Shown here: piece after piece, positions 21,101-54,346 of the stretch
Layout: each line of letters begins with the position of its first letter
How positions within the stretch are numbered: position 1 is the stretch's first letter
From: Lysobacterales bacterium
GTDB taxonomy: Bacteria; Pseudomonadota; Gammaproteobacteria; Xanthomonadales; SZUA-5
Assembly (NCBI GenBank): GCA_022844165.1
Contig: JALHMH010000013.1
Coordinates: 54,045 to 118,044 of the forward strand
DNA: 64,000 bases
Direction of reading: 5' to 3'
Notes under the pieces: model-generated
What the model saw: only the letters and a program-made list of their open reading frames with translations
What the model was told of the DNA's origin: nothing
Databases searched by the model: none
Translations under genes and position numbers: made by a program

Positions 21101-24100
21101 TTGACAAATGACTCGGTCGAAATCACTGGCAGCTCGTTCAATAACGAACCTGTCGGTGCAACCGACGTTTGTGACAGCAGTTCCTGAAGGTCTGCGACTT
21201 CCAGCGGCACCGAACCATCCGGCTGCTCGTGAGCCGAAAACTCGACACCAATTGTCTCTTCCGTCGGCAGGGAGAATTCAAGATCCCCCTCGATCTGCGC
21301 CACCTCAGCCCGACCACCAGCATCCTCACCGACCTGCGCCGACGTCTGCCCCGCTGGCGAGTCGTCGGCGAGAAAAGCGTCTTCATCGAATGGAATAGCG
21401 ATGATTTCTGCGATCTGTCCGGCCTGGAGATCTGATTCCGTTGCGAGCTCGCCGGCGCCGCTATTTGGTTCTTCCTCCTGCCACGAACTGAAGCTGTCAA
21501 CAGGATCCACTGTTGCCGCGTCTGCGTCAGGCGAAACCATCGCACCATCGCCAGCGGCATTGTCCGCGTCGAACACCAACGCGACGTCTGGCTCTTCGAC
21601 GATATCCAGGATGGCCGGCTCCGACAAGGCTGACCGTGCCGGCTCGTCCGCCGCCGCCGATTCGACGGTGTCAACTTCGTACCAAGGCCTGGCAGACGTC
21701 TCAGGGTGCTGTTCATCCAGATCGTGTATGCCATAACCTTGGTAGGGATGGTCCGGCGCAGGCAAGCCATCGCGCAACGCCACCACGCGATCGGCCAAAA
21801 ATTCCGTGGAACTGACCGTCAGGTGGTTTTCCAACGAATGCATCGTCGCTTCAATGCAATTGGCGGAATCGCGCAGCGCCTCAACCCCTTCGAAACTCGG
21901 CTCGTGTCCTTGTGCGCGGAGCCGTTTCAAATAGCCCTCCAATGGCCCAACGAACCTTGTCAAAACAGGCAAGTCGACCATCGACAAAGCGCCATTCATC
22001 GTATGAACGGCTCGAAGCAACTCTTCAGTCACAGGCGGTGGTGACGCCAACAATTCCGCTTCAGCAAGAAAGCGACGCATCGTTGCCACATGAGACGTAA
22101 TCTCACTGCTTAGGATTTCCATCAGCATCGGATCAACATCTAAAGGCGATCCGGCCGAGGGCGTCAGCAAACTATGATGGTCTGCCTCGTAGGGAACTTG
22201 CTGTTCGAGTGCAGGTATGGCGGGCGACAAGGTGCCGACACCGACGGCAACCGGCTCTACGTCGCCATTCGCCATCGAGTGATCGGTTTCTGCCTCGAAC
22301 GCTGCCGACTGAATTTCGCCATCGAAAGCTCCCGCCGCAGCGACCGGCTTGTCAGCCTTGGCCACCGTGGCGGGCGAGGATTTTGGGAGCCAGACCTCCT
22401 GTCCCGACGCCAGCTGGTCCGAAACCCACATGATTGTGCCAATTTGCGGGTCAGGCCGACCCTCTCCCTTTAGTCCGGCCAACATGCTCGGCAACGCTGC
22501 GAGCGCATTGTCCAGAAGATCGAGTATTGCGGGTGTTGGCTGGATAGTCTTGTCGAGCACGCGATTCAACATGTTCTCGATCTTCCAGGCGAACTCTCCG
22601 ATCGCGAGTGCACCAACCAAACGACCACTTCCCTTCAAGGTATGGAATGAGCGTCGCACGGGTTTGAGCTTCTCGAAATCGCCCAAGTCAGACTTCCACT
22701 GAGGATATTGCCTGTTGAGATTGTTAAGCTCTTCCTCCACCTCTTCGACAAACACCTCACGAATCTCATCATCGATTTCGTCCGACGGCATCGCCTGGAA
22801 ACCGACATCCGGAATCGCGAATGTTGTGATAGCCGAATCGACGTTGACGCTGTCTTCGGGCAATGACACCGAAAGCTCGACCGTCTGGTCCGCCGCCGCG
22901 ACGGGCGGCTCCAGGTCCATCGTAAGTGCTGGCGCCTCCAGGTCCATCGTGAATGCCGGCGCCTCCAGGTCAAGTTCATCCACCTTGGCAGGCGCTCTTG
23001 CGTCGACCTCAAAGCTAAACTCAGGATCGGTCTGACCAAGATCCAGGCTCAGATGCTCGTGCTTTGGTGCCACATCGGCAATCAGATCATCCAAACTCAG
23101 AGCCGTGTCGTCTCTGATCGACGCATCGAAAGGCTGGGTCCCGCTTGATAGATCGATGAAGTCCAAATCACTGAGCAAGCTACTCGATCCGGGCGCTTCA
23201 AGCTCCGCAGTGGTCACGCGCAACCCAGACAGCTGGATGTCAGCCGGTTCGGTGGCCGGAGCGATATCGCCGATGAGCAGAGATTCCAGGTTGTCACCGG
23301 GAGCGATATCGACGGCGTCCAGAGCAGCCAATGGCGTGACATCGATGTCAGCAGAAGCAGCACTGGTCGAGGCTACGGTCTCGTCGATGACAGCAGACGC
23401 GGCACTGGGTAAGCGCGAGGGCTCGTCGGCGAAAACGGGCTCGTTCACGAAGGGGCCCATTCCGACTTGATCCCCCAACGAGGAATCGAACAAGGTGTCG
23501 ATATCGACCACCTCCGAGGAAGAGGCGATCATCGAGTCGATCGCAGAAGCATCTGGCAGACCCATCGAATCGTGCTCCGCCGTTGGTTCTGACGCCATCG
23601 GCGATTGGGTAGGGGGCGGGCTGCCAACGCGGTCCGTAGCAAATGCATCGGGAAATCTGGGGAAATCACTTGCTTCTGGCGCAACTTCGAGAATTTCGTC
23701 GCTATCGGCGGACAGGTCTGCGCCATCGACCGGCAATGGCCAGTAGCCGAGCGCCTCAAGACTGCGACGGGTCACGTCAAGAATCTTGTCGCGATTCCGA
23801 CGCCCCTCCTTTACAGCCTCCAAGTAAAATTCGATGGAAGCGATCGCATCGGCCATCAAGTCCAATTGATCGCCCGAAGGAACTCTGCGATGTTTTAACA
23901 GCTCGACTTCCGCGAAACGAACCACACCACTTAGAAGCTCGGCAGCGTCCGGGAGATTCAACATCCGCATTGCACCGCTAATTTCATCCAGTAGCCGCGG
24001 GATTTGTTCGATCTTGCTGTGATCCCATGGCGACTCAATGAACGCTACGATGTCTTGTTTGGCCTGTTGAATATTGGCAGACGCTTCCTTTGTGGTCGCA

Positions 24101-31242: not shown

Positions 31243-31480
31243 CCAGAGTCCTTGACGGAGACTGATCTCGACAAATGAGTCAAATTTTCTTAGGAGCGGC
31301 TTTAGCTTTTGCAGCCCCTTAAGTTAAGGGGGTGAGACGCGGCGCTGACACGCCGCAGGCGTGTGCCGAGTCGAACGCCCGGCGGCTGCGCCGCTGGGCC
31401 GGAAATGCGAAGCCCGGGTTGTGGGAAATACGGTGTCTGGCGAAGCCAACAATGCGCGTCGGTCTGAGGCAAAGCCTCGC
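31243..31480 (+). repeat. Dispersed ~240-bp structured intergenic element, copy A
   Basis: About 88% identical by manual alignment to the reverse complement of 49690-49928; several hairpins. Confidence 0.9.
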
Positions 31481-31636
31481 CAGTGCTTTCGGTTCTTGCG
31501 GCTGGCTTTCAGCCGTGATCGTGTTTGTGGCGCTGGCGTTGTCGGACCAAACTCATATCGCTTTTCAGACTGAGGCGAAGTCGCTTCATCTTCGCCGCAG
31601 AACAACAAGTCCTGCGATGAGTGATCCACATCGTTC

Positions 31637-33040: not shown

Positions 33041-33184
33041 GATTTTCCCCGGACGATGGCGCTGACGCGGCTGCGTAGCGCGCGTCGGCAAGCTCCCCAG
33101 CGACCAACGCGGTGCAAATCGTAGTCGCATTCCATCGCGCAACACGATAGGTTGCAATCGTATTCAGATGTTTCGCCTGATTAA

Positions 33185-33951
33185 CCCGCATATTTCATGA
33201 GGGAACGCGGAAGATCGCGAAGGGTGAGAGCGAGCAAGCTTGCGCCGCATGCGGCGCGCTCGCTCGAACGGGTGGCGGCTGTGCCGCCACACCGGACTGA
33301 AGGCTGGCAAGCTTGCGCCGCATGCGGCGCGCTCGCTCGAACGGGTGGCGGCTGTGCCGCCACACCGGACTGAAGGCTGACGAGCTTGCGCCGCATGCGG
33401 CGCGCACGCTCGAACGGGTGGCGGCTGTGCCGCCACACCGGACTGAAGGCTGGCGAGCTTGCGCCGCGCGAGCTGCGCGCCAGACTGAACGACTGGCGGC
33501 TGCGCCGCCAGGCCGGACCTTTGCGCCGGAATCGAGGCGCGAGAAGGGTGAGAGCGGGCAAACTTGCGCCGCATGCGGCGCGCCAGCTCGAACGGGCGGC
33601 GGCTGCGCCGTTGCACTGGGCGGAATGGTTGACCCGGCCCGTCAGCGTAGCTGCCGGGCGCTCTGAGCATCGCGCGCTGCGCGCGCAAGCGATGCTCCTC
33701 GCCCATTGCGACGACGAGCTTTGAGTCGTCCGGCGCAAAGAACGAGCGAGGGTGAGGCGGGATTTCCGCCGCATGCGGCGCGCCGCCGAACGCCAGCGCA
33801 TGGATGCGCTGGCCGGAGGGGCGAAGCAGGAAGCGCAGCCGTGCTAGCGAGGAAATGGCAGCGGACAGCCTGTCATTCCAACCAATTCGAAGGTTCCGCG
33901 CCGTTACAACGAAATGAGGCCATTTCATCGCGACCTCATGAAATATGCGGG
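33185..33951. mobile_element. Non-autonomous MITE-like element with IS1380/piggyBac-like ends and TTAA target duplication
   Basis: TTAA|CCCGCATATTTCATGAGG (33181-33202) and CCTCATGAAATATGCGGG|TTAA (33934-33955); no transposase inside. Confidence 0.8.
33234..33520 (+). repeat. 73-bp tandem repeat (3 near-identical units plus 1 degenerate) of double-hairpin units; further diverged units at ~33546 and ~33750
   Basis: Units start at 33234, 33307, 33380 and 33453; units 1-3 contain palindrome GCGCCGCATGCGGCGC and hairpin GTGGCGGC-TGT-GCCGCCAC. Confidence 0.92.
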
Positions 33952-34040
33952 TTAACGCACCCGCGATGATCATTGGCCGTTCCTGCGAACGCCTGGCCCA
34001 GGCTGGTCTGGACCACAGCCGCGCCAATTGAGGAACCGCA

Positions 34041-36824
34041 CTATGGCGTGAGTAAGCGTTGCAACTCTTCGGCCGCTCGCCGGAATTCAATGCTCGCTTG
34101 ACGTGCCATCCCGACAGTGTCGCGCAGCGTACCCGCACGCGCACCATGTTCGATCAACTTTGCCACGTCAGACAACGCCATCGCACCCAGGTTTGCGCTG
34201 GTCGATTTCAGCGAGTGCGCAGGTGCAATCATGGCCTGGACATCGCCTCGCTCCGCTGCTCCATTCAGGATCTTTAAGTTCGTTGGAGTGTCCTCAAGGT
34301 AGACCTTGACCAGCGACGTAAACTCGTTGCCCATCACATCGATCAGCTCATTGACGATTGCTTCGTTAATGGCGGGCGCTTGGGGCGTTAGCCGGACAGG
34401 CTCGCTTAGTCGCACTGGAACCGGCGCCGGCGAGGGGCCCGGAGCAGCCGGCGCAGGCTTAACCTCTTGCGCCGACACTCGCAACTCGGCCAGAACCGCA
34501 GGCTGCTCGATGGCTGCCGCAACGGTGGACCTGGTGGATTTTGGCATCCATTTGCGGATGGTTTGTTCGAGCAAGCCACGGTTAAGCGGTTTGCTCATGT
34601 AGTCGTCCATCCCAGAAGCGAGGCACTTCTCGCGATCCCCAGCCATCGCATTTGCAGTCATCGCGATGATCGGTATACGCGTCAGGCCCTTTTCCTGTTC
34701 AAGTGTGCGGCGCGATCGGGTCGAAGTGTAGCCGTCCATGACTGGCATTTGGCAATCCATGAGCACGACATCGAAACCGCCTCGACCCATCAGATCCAAT
34801 GCGTCTTTTCCGTTTTCAGCAATTTCGAACGTAATGCCGATCAACCCAAGCAGCCGTTGCGCAACCTGACGATTGACTGGATTGTCTTCAACCAGCAGGG
34901 CGTGACCACCCAGCTTACCGGTTTCAGTTCGCGCGCCGACATCAATCGGTGGCGCGGTATCTTGCCCCAGGCGCGCGGCCTCCTCCAGCAAGTTGAAGCG
35001 CCGCTCGCTACCTGCATCGACAAGCAGCGCCTTGTTTAATGCGCCCATGAGATCGGCATCGGTGAACTGCCGTTTGATCAACTGACTTCGGGCCGGGTCA
35101 TTGCCCAATTCAGCTGGCGGTGACTCCTCACCCTCGATATGAACCACCTTGAGCCGCTCAAGGACCGGCTCGCGACCGACGTTGCGATAGAGTGCCGGAG
35201 CTGTCGTGCGCATGCTGCCCAAATCAACAATGACCACATCGAATGCCCAGTTCTCGCCCAATGTGGCCGAAGACTTCAGTTTGCTCAATGCGTCTGCGGT
35301 GGTGTTCGTCGAAATCTGGCTCATGCCCCACATCTGGCATTGACCCGTGATTCGCTGCGTCAGCCGTTGATCTCCACTGACGATCAGCGCGCGGGCGCCG
35401 GCCAGATCTCGCCGATGGCTACTGACATCGCCCAGCGCTTTCAATAAGGGGACGCTGAACCAAAACACCGAACCCTTCCCGGGTTCGCTTTTCAGCCCAA
35501 TCTTCCCGCCCATGAGCTCAACGATTCGTTTGCAGATCACTAAGCCAAGGCCGGTGCCGCCGTAGTTGCGCGTGGTCGAAGTGTCGGCCTGCGAAAATGG
35601 CTGGAACAGCTTCTCGGCCTTCTCCGGCGAGATGCCAACCCCAGTGTCGCGGACTGCGAAAAGCACTTCGCTATGCGTTCGCGTTTCGCCGCGTTTGCTG
35701 ATTTGGATCGCGATAGAACCCTTGTCCGTGAACTTAACCCCATTGCTGACGAGATTTGACAGCACCTGACGCAAACGAACCGGGTCGCCACGGCACGCCA
35801 ATCGAACATTGGGATCGAAGCTGACTGAGATTTTCAGCCCTTTGTTCTCAGCGGAGCGCTCCATCAAGCGGAAGACCGAATCAACCACATCTTTGAGATT
35901 CAGTCCGACGCTCTCAAGCTCAAGCTTGTTGGCCTCAATCTTCGAGTAGTCGAGAATATCGTCGATGATCCTCAGCAGATGGCGAGCAGACGAGTACGCA
36001 GTATTCAAGTACTCACGTTGGTCGACTTCCAGTTTGGTATCACGCAGGATTTCGAGCAATGGAATGATGCCGTTGAGCGGCGTGCGCATTTCATGGCTCA
36101 TCGTTGCCAAAAATTCGCCCTTCGCCATGTTTGCGGCTTCTGCGGCCTGCCTGGCGCCTTCCATCTCCTTTTCGAGATTGCGCTGGCGTTCCAATTCACC
36201 GCGCAGCTGTGTCAGCTCCACAACGTCGATGGTGGTGGCCTGCACGACCCTCTCCACCGGCTGCGCGGATTCCACGATTTGGGGCGACTCTAAGACCGTT
36301 TCTCGGCTTACCAACCACCAATGGCCAGAGACGATCAGTGCTATCGCAGCGACGGCGATCAATCCACCTTCTGCGCCAAACAGCTGCCAGGCGCCAGGCA
36401 ATAGCAGCACGCTCAGAGCCGTGACCACAAGCCAAAGCTGCGAGTGAAACAACCAAATCACCGCCAATGCCAAACCCACCAATGCCAGATGCAAAGGCGA
36501 GTTGGCATGGACTTGACCAAGAACGAATGGAGCAGCGCCCCACTGCAGGGCGCCCGCTACCACCAACATCTGCGCAATCGAAGTGTTCGGTTCCGGCCCG
36601 CGCTCCGCCAGACGGCGCGCCCAGTAAGCCGCGCCAGCCGTGCCTAGCAGCAGAACACACCAAATCGCGATCCGTGTCGGTTCCGCAAAGCCAATCGACG
36701 CGTATGCCACCAGCAGCGACAAAACGCCAGAACAAAGACACCACCGGATCGCAGCATGCATCATGGTTTGACTGCGCTCATCAGGCTGAGCAGACCGCGA
36801 CTTCATTCGAAGCGCCAGCAACAT
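34041..36824 (-). CDS. Membrane hybrid sensor histidine kinase (TM-HisKA-HATPase-REC-REC-Hpt)
   Basis: [47 protein letters not shown]; start uncertain. Confidence 0.93.
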
Positions 36825-41461: not shown

Positions 41462-41546
<85 letters not shown>

Positions 41547-41588: not shown

Positions 41589-41676
41589 CGCGCAGTGAAC
41601 GACGTCTAGCCACACGGGCTTGCGATCCGTGCTCAGGCAAAGCAATGCGCCTGCTTTCGAGTACGTACCTCTCAAA

Positions 41677-41707
41677 AACAAAACCCGCCGATAAGGCGGG
41701 TTTTGTT
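41677..41707 (-). terminator. Bidirectional intrinsic terminator after the cold-shock gene
   Basis: AACAAAACCCGCC-GATAA-GGCGGGTTTTGTT. Confidence 0.85.
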
Positions 41708-41732
41708 CAGAACTAAGGCGAAGCCGGAACGT

Positions 41733-41942
41733 TCAGACCGGCTGCACTTCCTCAGCCTGGAAGCCCTTCTGGCCCTTGACGACCTTGAAGCTCACCTTCT
41801 GGCCTTCCTTCAGGGTCTTGAAACCGTTGCCCTGGATGGCGCGGAAGTGCACGAACACGTCCTCACCGCCTTCGCGGCTGATAAATCCAAAGCCCTTGGC
41901 GTCATTGAACCACTTGACGGTGCCAACTGAACGATCCGACAT
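41733..41942 (-). CDS. Cold-shock protein (CspA family)
   Basis: [21 protein letters not shown]; ATG 41942 with GGAG RBS. Confidence 0.96.
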
Positions 41943-42178
41943 CTTGAAAATCTCCAAACTCAACTGAACTAAGGGAAGCGCATCTGCGCTACCGGGATTG
42001 ACTGGGCGTGCGGGGGAATTTGCAACGAGCGGATCGAACGGATCAGCAACGGGGCTAGCGGCCTGCAAACACAGCGCAAGAAGTGTAACGGATAAATCTT
42101 CTCCATAGCTAGCACTTTTTTGCGTCGACTTTCACTTCGTTTTGGCTAGCATCAGGCGACCTGATCCCGAGAACCAAC

Positions 42179-45702: not shown

Positions 45703-45816
45703 GCGGGGCACGGGACACGGGGCACGGGATATGGGAACTGGTGCCTGTGTCGGCTCGCCAGCCGACCAGAGGCACGACCACTTCCTGTGCCCCTTACCCC
45801 GCCCCCCGTGACCCGC
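45703..45816. repeat. Inverted heptamer-repeat hairpin (GGGGCAC)n...(GTGCCCC)n
   Basis: GGGGCAC-GGGACAC-GGGGCAC-GGGATAT, an internal stem, then the complementary C-rich arm. Confidence 0.75.
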
Positions 45817-47678: not shown

Positions 47679-47710
47679 GGCGCGGGCGCCTCCTGGGGCG
47701 CTTCAAAAGC

Positions 47711-47834
47711 GGGGCTCGGGGCACGGGGTACGGGGTACGGGAATTTGTGCAGCGCCTTCGCGCTCCGGGCATATGGCAAACGCACAGAGGCTAGAGCCAA
47801 ATTCTCGGGCCCCGCGCCCCGTGCCCCGTGCCCC
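47711..47834. repeat. Inverted heptamer-repeat hairpin (GGGGYAC)n...(GTGCCCC)n
   Basis: GGGGCTC-GGGGCAC-GGGGTAC-GGGGTAC-GGGAATTTG ... CAAATTCTC-GGGCCCC-GCGCCCC-GTGCCCC-GTGCCCC. Confidence 0.8.
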
Positions 47835-49689: not shown

Positions 49690-49928
49690 GCGAGGCTTCG
49701 CCTCAGACCGCCGAGCATTGCTGGCTTCGTCCGACAGCGTACTCGCCACAACCCCGCGCTTCGTATTTCCGGCCCAGCGGCGCAGCCGCCGGGCGTTCGA
49801 CTCGGCACACGCCTGCGGCGTGTCAGCGCCGAGTCTCACCCCCATGACTCAAGGGGCTGCAAAAGCCAAAGCCGCTCCGCAGCGAATTTGACTCAAATGT
49901 ACAGATCCGGCTCCGTCAAGGACGCTAG
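49690..49928 (-). repeat. Dispersed ~240-bp structured intergenic element, copy B
   Basis: Reverse complement aligns end to end with 31243-31480. Confidence 0.9.
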
Positions 49929-54083: not shown

Positions 54084-54097
54084 TTACGGCGAAGGCG

Positions 54098-54261
54098 CCA
54101 GAGTCCTTGACTGAGCGGGATCTTGTCATTTGAGTCAAGTTTTCGTCGGAGCGGCTTTGGCTGTTGAAGCCCCCATTGAGTACAAGGGGGTGGAGGATCG
54201 GCGCTTACACGCCGCAAGGCGTGTGCCGAGCCGAACGACCGGCGGCTGTGCCGCCGGGCCG
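54098..54261 (+). repeat. Dispersed structured intergenic element, copy C (diverged 5' two-thirds)
   Basis: CCAGAGTCCTTGAC start shared with copy A; TGAGTCAA, GGAGCGGCTTTGGC, ACACGCC-GCAA-GGCGTGT, CCGGCGGC-TGT-GCCGCCGG. Confidence 0.85.
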
Positions 54262-54346
54262 AGCGGCATCGCGATAGCGACGACAAGCGCCACAGAATCG
54301 GGCCGAAGACCCAGCGAGAAAGGCGTGAAACTTCCGGCGGATCAGA

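Follow-up and report, generated by a model that had tools for sequence, protein, structure and literature searches.

A recurrent two-hairpin module in tandem and in several short carrier elements of Xanthomonadales (Lysobacterales) genomes

What kind of genetic object is a unit of some 76 nucleotides that forms two hairpins, is repeated in tandem, turns up again inside dispersed elements and keeps its stems paired while their sequences change? The question is raised by a stretch of 64,000 nucleotides (here the window) from the genome of a Lysobacterales bacterium (GCA_022844165.1, contig JALHMH010000013.1, positions 54,045 to 118,044). A preliminary description of the window had proposed a structured motif, RNA or single-stranded DNA, that is amplified in tandem, housed in different element shells and part of an undescribed system. 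The pairing, the tandem amplification and the multiple shells stood up to the analysis presented here; the RNA identity, a strand argument drawn from wobble pairs and the idea of an undescribed system received no support. The module looks like a new family, or a variant, of the known intergenic mosaic repeats, i.e., repetitive extragenic palindromes and bacterial interspersed mosaic elements (REP/BIME), BOX elements and the cargo of miniature inverted-repeat transposable elements (MITEs), and not like a new kind of system, because it behaves as such repeats do. We see about an even chance that it is REP/BIME-like, non-autonomous, site-preferring mobile DNA, the hairpins of which would be read by a putative trans-acting enzyme.

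The genome that contains the window, G000 in what follows, is that of an uncultured water bacterium of the Xanthomonadales (Lysobacterales), with 4.68 Mb in 59 contigs and a G+C content of 60.5%. The layout of the module was read from an alignment of 36 diverse copies; a covariance model (CM), R1, served to find further ones. A leader, RGGGTGAR in general and GGGGTGAG in the copies of shell 1 (see below), is followed by the outer stem P1 (8 bp), a bulge of 4-6 nt on the 5' side only (GCTG, GCTT or AAGCTT), the inner stem P2 (6-7 bp with a 2-4-nt loop) and the 3' strand of P1. P1, bulge and P2 together make up a bipartite hairpin 1. Then come the unpaired YGAAC, the stem P3 or hairpin 2 (10 bp closed by a 3-nt loop; its second pair is often a fixed mismatch, A.G or G.A) and a final CGGR. 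The module has no terminal inverted repeats (TIRs) of its own.

Ten copies of this module, one of them inverted, are present in the window (Table 1); at least nine had been counted before, and the inverted one was added. The stem sequences first quoted are all there as written, with units 1 to 6 of the array at 33219-33821. Chance does not account for them: the pattern GAACGNNNNGCGGCTGYGCCGC, with up to 2 mismatches allowed, finds 8 matches versus 0.03 expected, a count reached in none of 100 shuffles, and GCCGCATGCGGCGC finds 10 strand-wise matches, i.e., 5 palindromic sites, versus 0.19 expected, again not reached by any shuffle. The tandem arrangement was confirmed by Tandem Repeats Finder (TRF), which reports a period of 73 with 3.2 copies and 97% matches at 33234-33467. 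G000 has other arrays, one at C45:18289-18981 with a period of 69 and one at the C2 end with a period of 73, the periods spanning 69-73 nt. The array of the window is enclosed by a 776-bp element with perfect inverted repeats of 22 nt at both ends. Two spurious open reading frames (ORFs) of 327 aa (33164-34147, minus strand) and 206 aa (33181-33801, minus strand) cross the array, and automatic annotation may call them as genes.

The covariation of the module is strong. The set consisted of 95 model-aligned matches, 89 of them distinct, from G000, from loci of its relatives and from named contigs of metagenome-assembled genomes; its rows are related and the alignment is fitted to the model. With this proviso, 88.2% of the pairing cells are paired in the 89 distinct sequences, versus 28-50.5% after a slide of the 3' partners by 1-3 columns. 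Changes on both sides are seen in 23 of 25 pairs, and the covariation score amounts to 0.426 versus 0.05-0.09 after sliding; none of 500 shuffles reached any of the observed measures. The register of P2 varies among the subfamilies, which lowers the paired percentage instead of raising it. P3 stems may be wholly replaced and yet pair, as in GCCTGAAAGC/GCTTTCAGGC, GCCGGACAAC/GTTGTCCGGC and GCACGGCCAT/ATGGCCGGGC. The early observation that the stems differ and still pair is thereby upheld as compensatory change in a larger alignment. The picture within one genome is different. Stem changes that are private to single copies of G000, judged against the subfamily consensus, comprise 22 wobble pairs, 16 A.C pairs (p = 0.42), 27 other mismatches and 5 compensated pairs. 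Individual copies thus decay, and the covariation sits between subfamilies and lineages rather than within copies, since few of the private changes are compensated. This is what is to be expected if only intact copies propagate.

Covariation in three helices, combined with conserved unpaired motifs, would also befit a functional structured RNA, be it a 3'-end element, a protein-binding RNA, a small RNA or a ribozyme, with the DNA copies being its genes. Some REPs do act as 3'-end elements that stabilise mRNA, insulate in the manner of a terminator or serve as processing sites. The conservation of the module extends over families of the order, and sense solo copies are found directly behind genes and inside operons (guaB-guaA, sucA-sucB and trpB-trpA; the trpB-trpA copy of the relatives sits inside a shell). 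Across genomes, 73 G.U/U.G pairs face 35 A.C/C.A pairs, counted in related rows of an alignment fitted to the model. The private changes, however, reveal no significant wobble preference (22 vs 16), and the earlier view that G-T wobbles favour one strand is therefore not established. Uncompensated mismatches, moreover, pile up in individual copies. The minimum-free-energy fold of unit 1 as RNA does show both hairpins (z = -3.9), but the complementary strand folds equally well as DNA, into the mirror image (z = -5.3). Rfam 15 has no family for the region at its gathering thresholds; with E values up to 10 admitted, MIR810 is the sole match, at 22 bits versus a threshold of 170. Compared by eye with the hammerhead consensus, the module lacks the core of this ribozyme (CUGAUGA ... 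GAAA plus the A-U pair 15.1-16.1).

The orientation of the copies speaks against an RNA, too. As determined with a crude gene caller (3296 calls, 84% of the genome), 98 of 120 module clusters in G000 are intergenic, 5 lie inside gene calls and 17 at contig edges. Between co-directional genes, 21 of the 98 classified clusters are sense and 30 antisense, i.e., there is no sense bias; the others occupy convergent (26) or divergent (21) spacers. An RNA identity of the module is not supported by such unbiased orientation relative to the flanking genes, and we consider it unlikely. Some copies may nevertheless have a function.

How, then, does the module get around? In G000 it is housed in at least three non-coding shells, with further shells in relatives and with solo copies besides, which bears out the notion of different element shells and extends it. 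Shell 1, of 165-240 bp, consists of two arms, L and R, between which the module may or may not be present, usually with CTAG at the ends; the ends of element A in the window are flanked by CCAG, those of most other copies by CTAG. Its arms match 156-196 times in G000, BLAST finds hundreds of partial or full copies, and they often stand head-to-tail with one common CTAG. By pairing, the two arms can form a long stem that has the module at its tip. In variants the module is replaced by CGC or another small hairpin, and a metagenome contig also displays a 75-nt skip, with CGC standing for the module. The contigs that match here, from four DNA data sets of one study, are short and paralogous; none of them spans the whole stretch, and they leave parts of it uncovered. 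Shell 2, which houses the array, has the TIR ACCCGCATATTTCATGAGG; seven such TIR pairs, 127-769 bp apart, are found in G000. Shell 3 measures about 231 bp and has the TIR GTGTGGTGTTCCGTCATTA within CTAG. In G000 it is represented by ten complete TIR pairs of 216-300 bp (single TIR matches number 35), often located where a contig ends. The shells of relatives have other ends, CTAGAAACCTCAGTTGGAC, GGGAACCTCT or of the GGGAGAGGGG type.

A MITE is characterised by TIRs, a target duplication and the lack of coding capacity. Shells 2 and 3 have clear TIRs flanked by TA/CTAG, shell 1 has CTAG flanks but weak TIRs, and the module by itself has none. A full-length parent insertion sequence (IS) with the shell ends is not found in G000, where the pairs are short (up to 769 bp). 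The orthologous spacers of G001, a genome of the same genus, contain neither element A nor shell 2; they measure 97 and 76 bp there versus 457 and 878 bp in G000, and are too diverged for an exact alignment of the empty sites. By this comparison, the absence apparently marks recent mobility of the two carriers. In sum, three modes of spread are evident: as cargo of short CTAG/TA-flanked elements, by tandem amplification, and as solo copies in spacers or behind stop codons.

Would it suffice, then, to regard the module as inert cargo, i.e., as an internal, hairpin-rich part of a single old MITE superfamily, reshuffled between elements by recombination and replication slippage? Its palindromes would be kept by template switching or gene conversion within the hairpins, without a dedicated enzyme and without a function. 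Shells 2 and 3 and some shells of the relatives indeed have extra internal sequence in common: in them the module is preceded by GGCAAGGCGCGA and followed by a short hairpin with GACGAGCAACGC, which implies that these shells form one family with changed ends. Paralogous contigs differ in the copy number of their arrays, the joints being in register at GAAC, and the decay of single copies would also fit. Shell 1 and the solo sites, however, have in common with the other contexts the module alone: it appears there as a bare unit with the same boundaries and without extra shared sequence. Nor is it easily seen how DNA-level palindrome maintenance alone would fix the unpaired GGGTGAR, GAAC and CGGR. 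Stems that are fully replaced across genera and still pair, such as the first two P3 pairs given above, argue in the same direction, as does the siting of the module body, which abuts GGNTGA gene ends at two independent loci. Inert cargo is, in our view, an unlikely explanation of the module.

These loci deserve a closer look. Solo copies in relatives lie between guaB and guaA, between sucA and sucB, and beside tRNA and tmRNA genes. Five genes confirmed by Pfam end in the stop codon of the leader: guaB, a GGDEF-EAL gene, an ABC permease gene, MoaA and a XerC/D-like integrase gene (the second Pfam batch covered 15 selected ORFs of about 100, out of 196 neighbour ORFs listed). The guaB-guaA spacer is devoid of the module in four of the four relatives compared with G023, in which guaB reads ...ATGGGGTGA and P1 follows at once. 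The native guaB ends show a G-run and TGA in G155 (ATGGGCTGA) and G108 (GCGGGTTGA), and TGA without a preceding G-run in G034 (GCTTGA) and G149 (GCCTGA). The XerC/D-like gene natively ends with CGCGGNTGA or TAG in five of five relatives; in G023 it reads ...CGGGGGTAA, and then P1 begins. From the filled and empty sites of both genes we infer that the leader is at least partly target sequence and that the body of the module starts directly after a GGG(N)T(G/A)A site.

A special case are arrays next to tRNA genes. In L105 (~1300-1700) and L038 (~1277-1700) each module is preceded by a copy of the final 16-17 nt of the tRNA, on the reverse strand; the repeats comprise the tRNA 3' end up to a G-run, then (G)TGAR and the module. 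Repeated tRNA 3' ends are also known from integration sites of tyrosine-recombinase elements. In L122 (1480-1640) a sequence resembling a tRNA 3' end stands before two leaders, as judged by sequence alone. Such arrangements invite the idea of a host-domesticated DNA site, be it a binding site of a nucleoid or topology factor, a structural site, or a recombination site of a tyrosine recombinase; the last option is considered because the arrays abut tRNA genes and repeat the tRNA 3' end. BIMEs have been proposed as sites for gyrase and integration host factor. A mild over-representation in convergent spacers (26 of 98 clusters vs about 19% of the spacers) is compatible with a host site. But the neighbour ORFs examined comprise no conserved gene, just diverse housekeeping genes, and close relatives have anything between 0 and more than 100 copies, a pattern characteristic of selfish spread and not of a conserved host site. 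Integron-type R and L boxes are missing, as far as can be judged by eye from the consensus. A domesticated host site is therefore very unlikely.

The spread of the family is best described in numbers. Iterated nhmmer searches (three rounds) detected 140 copies in G000, 121 of them near full length. R1 finds at least 137 copies, and this number may be a floor because 150 of about 7195 first-look candidates were scored. The contig ends of G000 and G001 often fall within shell 3 or the module, e.g., at C15:193-273, C24:140-220 and C36:171-251; since the assemblies break inside these repeats, the true copy numbers are probably above those counted. Of 39 genomes (G000 and relatives) 18 match, each with a copy number between 1 and more than 100, and the family of G000 itself accounts for 14 positive genomes out of 22. 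Complete genomes of family f2 such as G155, G149 and G053 have 1-6 copies and probably come from cultured strains. In an even sample of 149 genomes of the order, taken at E up to 1e-5, 23 genomes match: 10 of 15 in family f1, 7 of 18 in f2, 4 of 17 in f4 and 1 of 15 in f9. No match was seen in f3 (8 genomes), f5 (4), f6 (2), f7 (17), f8 (17), f10 (17), f11 (1) and f12 (17) of this sample. In a sample of the class, one genome outside the order yielded a marginal match (E 9e-6) that resembles a diverged module. When 185,579 species genomes were scanned for an exact pattern, 32 loci came up, every one from metagenome-assembled genomes, labelled Lysobacterales, Lysobacteraceae, Xanthomonas, Lysobacter, Rhodanobacteraceae, Proteobacteria, Gammaproteobacteria and, for two of them, Cellvibrio. 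The lineage of the module is mostly uncultured Xanthomonadales (Lysobacterales). As an aside, three loci of f2 (L109, L112 and L113) display, about 60 nt upstream of the module, a hairpin with the loop region CATGGATG, and downstream GGAGGG...GTGTCCCG; to judge from these flanks, a larger conserved composite element may exist in f2, as the pattern suggests.

Which known system does the module resemble most? With REP/BIME it shares the extragenic location, the GC-rich, hairpin-forming character, a copy number of tens to hundreds that varies strongly between relatives, the occurrence as singletons, inverted dimers, tandem clusters and mosaics with other motifs, the position behind genes and inside operons, and a hairpin with a short unpaired motif conserved at its foot. 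It differs from a REP, which is a single imperfect palindrome of 20-40 bp, by its length of about 76 nt and its three helices P1-P3. Unlike REP/BIME, it is often nested inside other small elements, and unlike the REPtron and REPIN-RAYT arrangements it does not flank a gene for a REP-associated tyrosine transposase (RAYT) in G000. The GTAG- and CGTC-tagged REP super-families are defined by their unpaired tag at one end (Di Nocera et al. 2013, PMC3733652). In the 89 distinct module sequences the unpaired motifs are RGGGTGAR, YGAAC and CGGR, and no GTAG or CGTC of the kind described there is among them (PMC3733652). The module shows covariation that holds in a larger set, matches no Rfam family and lacks the tags of these REPs.

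The repeats associated with TIRYT genes come closer in one respect. The inverted repeats around TIRYT (subclass 2.1 TnpA-Y1) genes have GGGG[AT][CG]A[CG]; some of the repeats are double palindromic, they occur as dimers and in clusters, and Stenotrophomonas maltophilia has the most of them (PMC3733652; PMC6006769). The leader GGGGTGAG fits this motif at the level of the consensus; dimers and clusters are common to both, and the host order is that of S. maltophilia. None of 17 Y1 loci, however, is flanked by the module, in contrast to the TIRYT repeats. At one locus (L091) the motif-bearing GGGGTCAG is found upstream of a Y1 gene, without the module hairpins after it. The match of the leader to the TIRYT motif is, at the level of sequence, a lead and not a test. 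In the literature on REPs of Xanthomonadaceae, SMAG, TIRYT and MITEs of Xanthomonas no description of the module was found, although the published TIRYT repeat sequences were not compared.

Modular MITE-like repeats are another obvious comparison. BOX, the pneumococcal boxA-(boxB)n-boxC element with its tandemly variable middle unit, ERIC and Correia/NEMIS belong here. Shell 1, in which the middle module between the L and R arms may be missing or repeated, is built like BOX; the pairing of its arms with the module at the tip and the head-to-tail copies sharing CTAG also belong to this comparison. In contrast to BOX, ERIC and Correia, the module occurs in other shells and alone as well, and its conservation, with covariation, extends over families of an order. 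Like the ends of IS200/IS605 and palindrome-associated transposable elements (PATEs), it presents two different hairpins on one strand without obvious TIRs of its own. Like IS200/IS605 ends, it has a short flanking motif that is apparently target-derived and kept in all copies. This motif, however, has 6-7 nt rather than 4-5 nt, a significant replication-strand bias is not observed, and no cognate TnpA or TnpB was found for the module in G000, which sets it apart from IS200/IS605 and PATEs. Some further candidates were rejected by eye against their consensus sequences. Integron attC sites have R''/L''-L'/R' boxes, RYYYAAC ... GTTRRRY, and no GTTRRRY partner exists in or between the units. The hammerhead was dismissed for want of its core, as said above, and neither other ribozyme cores nor the GAAC target of IS91 nor a sigma-54 promoter in the R arm gave a fit. 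The GGA motifs of the tail might conceivably make the module a sponge for CsrA/RsmA.

The reading of the module as REP/BIME-like mobile DNA can now be worded as a mechanism. The module would be a discrete non-autonomous piece of mobile DNA, with hairpins and conserved unpaired motifs serving as recognition features for a trans-acting enzyme, and it would insert next to GGG(N)TGA-like sites. The logic would be akin to that of REP/RAYT and IS200/IS605, in which hairpins in single-stranded DNA, together with a short motif that flanks them, mark out the element. The fold would be selected at the propagation step, not at each inserted copy. Indeed, selection at propagation fits the results on orientation, private changes and strand better than a function at every locus does.

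Quite a few observations weigh against this reading. No enzyme could be linked to the module. The sole Y1 gene of G000 (RAYT-like, PF01797) at C48:21393-21728 (L001 1483-1932) encodes 149 aa, lies beside a VapC-like ORF and is flanked by a different hairpin, CCCAGGGCTTGCGCCCTGGG (CCCAGGGC-loop-GCCCTGGG), which is present in 8 copies. With filters off, none of the 17 Y1 loci of G000 and ten relatives is flanked by the module, and the presence of Y1 (29 of 39 genomes) does not track that of the module (18 of 39). Genes of the TnpB type (PF07282) or the IS630-type DDE_3 (PF13358) were not found in G000. Replication strand, for which single-strand transposition lets one expect a bias, was assigned as 31 modules with the G-rich strand versus 47, 42 being undecided (p = 0.09, G000); the trend is not significant and points to the C-rich strand. 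The 3' junction and a target duplication could not be defined, as the spacers compared are too diverged for either, and the agreement with GGGGWSAS is an 8-mer match noticed after the fact. Finally, most copies of G000 could have spread purely by transposition of their carriers.

The search for a mobilising enzyme produced some more details. The modules nearest to Y1 genes are 2.2-2.6 kb away and on one side only. A long Y1 gene with a C-terminal helix-turn-helix between inverted modules was not seen at the 17 loci, the weak Y1 matches in relatives being partly covered. In G000 no transposase lies between inverted module pairs that are about 1.4 kb apart; of the 7 ORFs enclosed one is polyketide-cyclase-like and the others are without family. 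A RAYT/REPtron link was rejected for G000, as the flanks of its Y1 gene carry another hairpin. The two Y1 (RAYT-like) genes read in the relative G003, in L085 (2150-4000) and L086 (3500-3950), have GTAG-type REPs of their own: they lie amid a different, GTAG-tailed REP family, CCTGGGGCGCAGCCCCAGGTAG, together with GGGCTTTCAGCCC hairpins.

A bolder interpretation would make the module a single-strand DNA cassette of about 70 nt with two hairpins and of undescribed type, or else a new class of structured RNA that uses mobile carriers. The cassette would insert immediately 3' of GGG(N)TGA-like sites, often natural stop codons, and become nested in other MITEs; its mover would be an unrecognised trans enzyme, e.g., a divergent TIRYT-like HUH nuclease encoded elsewhere or lost. 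We regard this with considerable doubt. REP/BIME-like mobile DNA thus is the reading that we adopt, at the modest strength stated at the outset.

The positions of the array, its units and the dispersed elements are compiled in Table 1.

Table 1. Module copies and carrier elements of the window (positions in nt; TIR, terminal inverted repeat; CM, covariance model; TRF, Tandem Repeats Finder)
Feature	Position	Strand	Evidence
Left TIR of shell 2, which houses the array	33181-33202	+	Perfect 22-nt inverted repeat with 33934-33955, 0 expected by chance
Module unit 1: leader GGGTGAG, bipartite hairpin, GAAC, hairpin 2, CGGA	33219-33300	+	CM R1, 85 bits
Module unit 2, leader replaced by CTGAAGG	33292-33373	+	CM match G000:C13:87336-87417; TRF period 73
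Module unit 3	33365-33446	+	CM match G000:C13:87409-87490
Module unit 4, stems unlike units 1-3, pairing kept	33438-33521	+	CM R1, 76.5 bits
Module unit 5, diverged tail	33543-33624	+	CM R1, 76.1 bits
Inverted module copy, tail-to-tail with unit 5 at 4 nt	33629-33707	-	CM R1, 57.8 bits, E 8.6e-11
Module unit 6, hairpin 2 stem wholly different (GCCAGCGCAT/ATGCGCTGGC)	33747-33821	+	CM R1, 36.3 bits, E 5.5e-6
Right TIR of shell 2	33934-33955	-	Pairs with 33181-33202
Element A (shell 1: L arm, module 31327-31407, R arm)	31244-31484	+	Module 93.7 bits (R1)
Element B (shell 1, module 49764-49844)	49690-49926	-	Module 98.8 bits (R1)
Element C (shell 1 L arm and module 54186-54267; without R arm; tail diverged)	54097-54267	+	Module 86.3 bits (R1)

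The window has some other features. Rfam reports the cspA thermoregulator beside a tRNA gene at 41675-41995 (minus strand) and 41462-41543 (plus strand), with 79.9 bits at a threshold of 78. Tandem repeats of G-rich heptamers (CGGGACA, CGGGGCA, GCCCCGT) are located at 45704-45729, 47710-47741 and 47809-47834; quadruplex-forming heptamer repeats are reportedly enriched in Xanthomonas. A 27-nt tandem repeat at 22904-22971 (2.5 copies) and one of 42 nt at 23342-23428 (2.1 copies) may be coding repeats.

What does the module mean for the bacteria that harbour it? A poorly studied, mostly uncultured lineage of the Xanthomonadales gains a well-defined structured repeat family, for which a covariance model is in hand. 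In practical terms, the family breaks assemblies, creates long spurious ORFs and could serve as a typing marker. Beyond that, it is a useful test case for REP-like spread without an obvious transposase, because a unit with fixed boundaries resides in unrelated carriers, covaries between lineages while its single copies decay, and is sited at GGNTGA ends.

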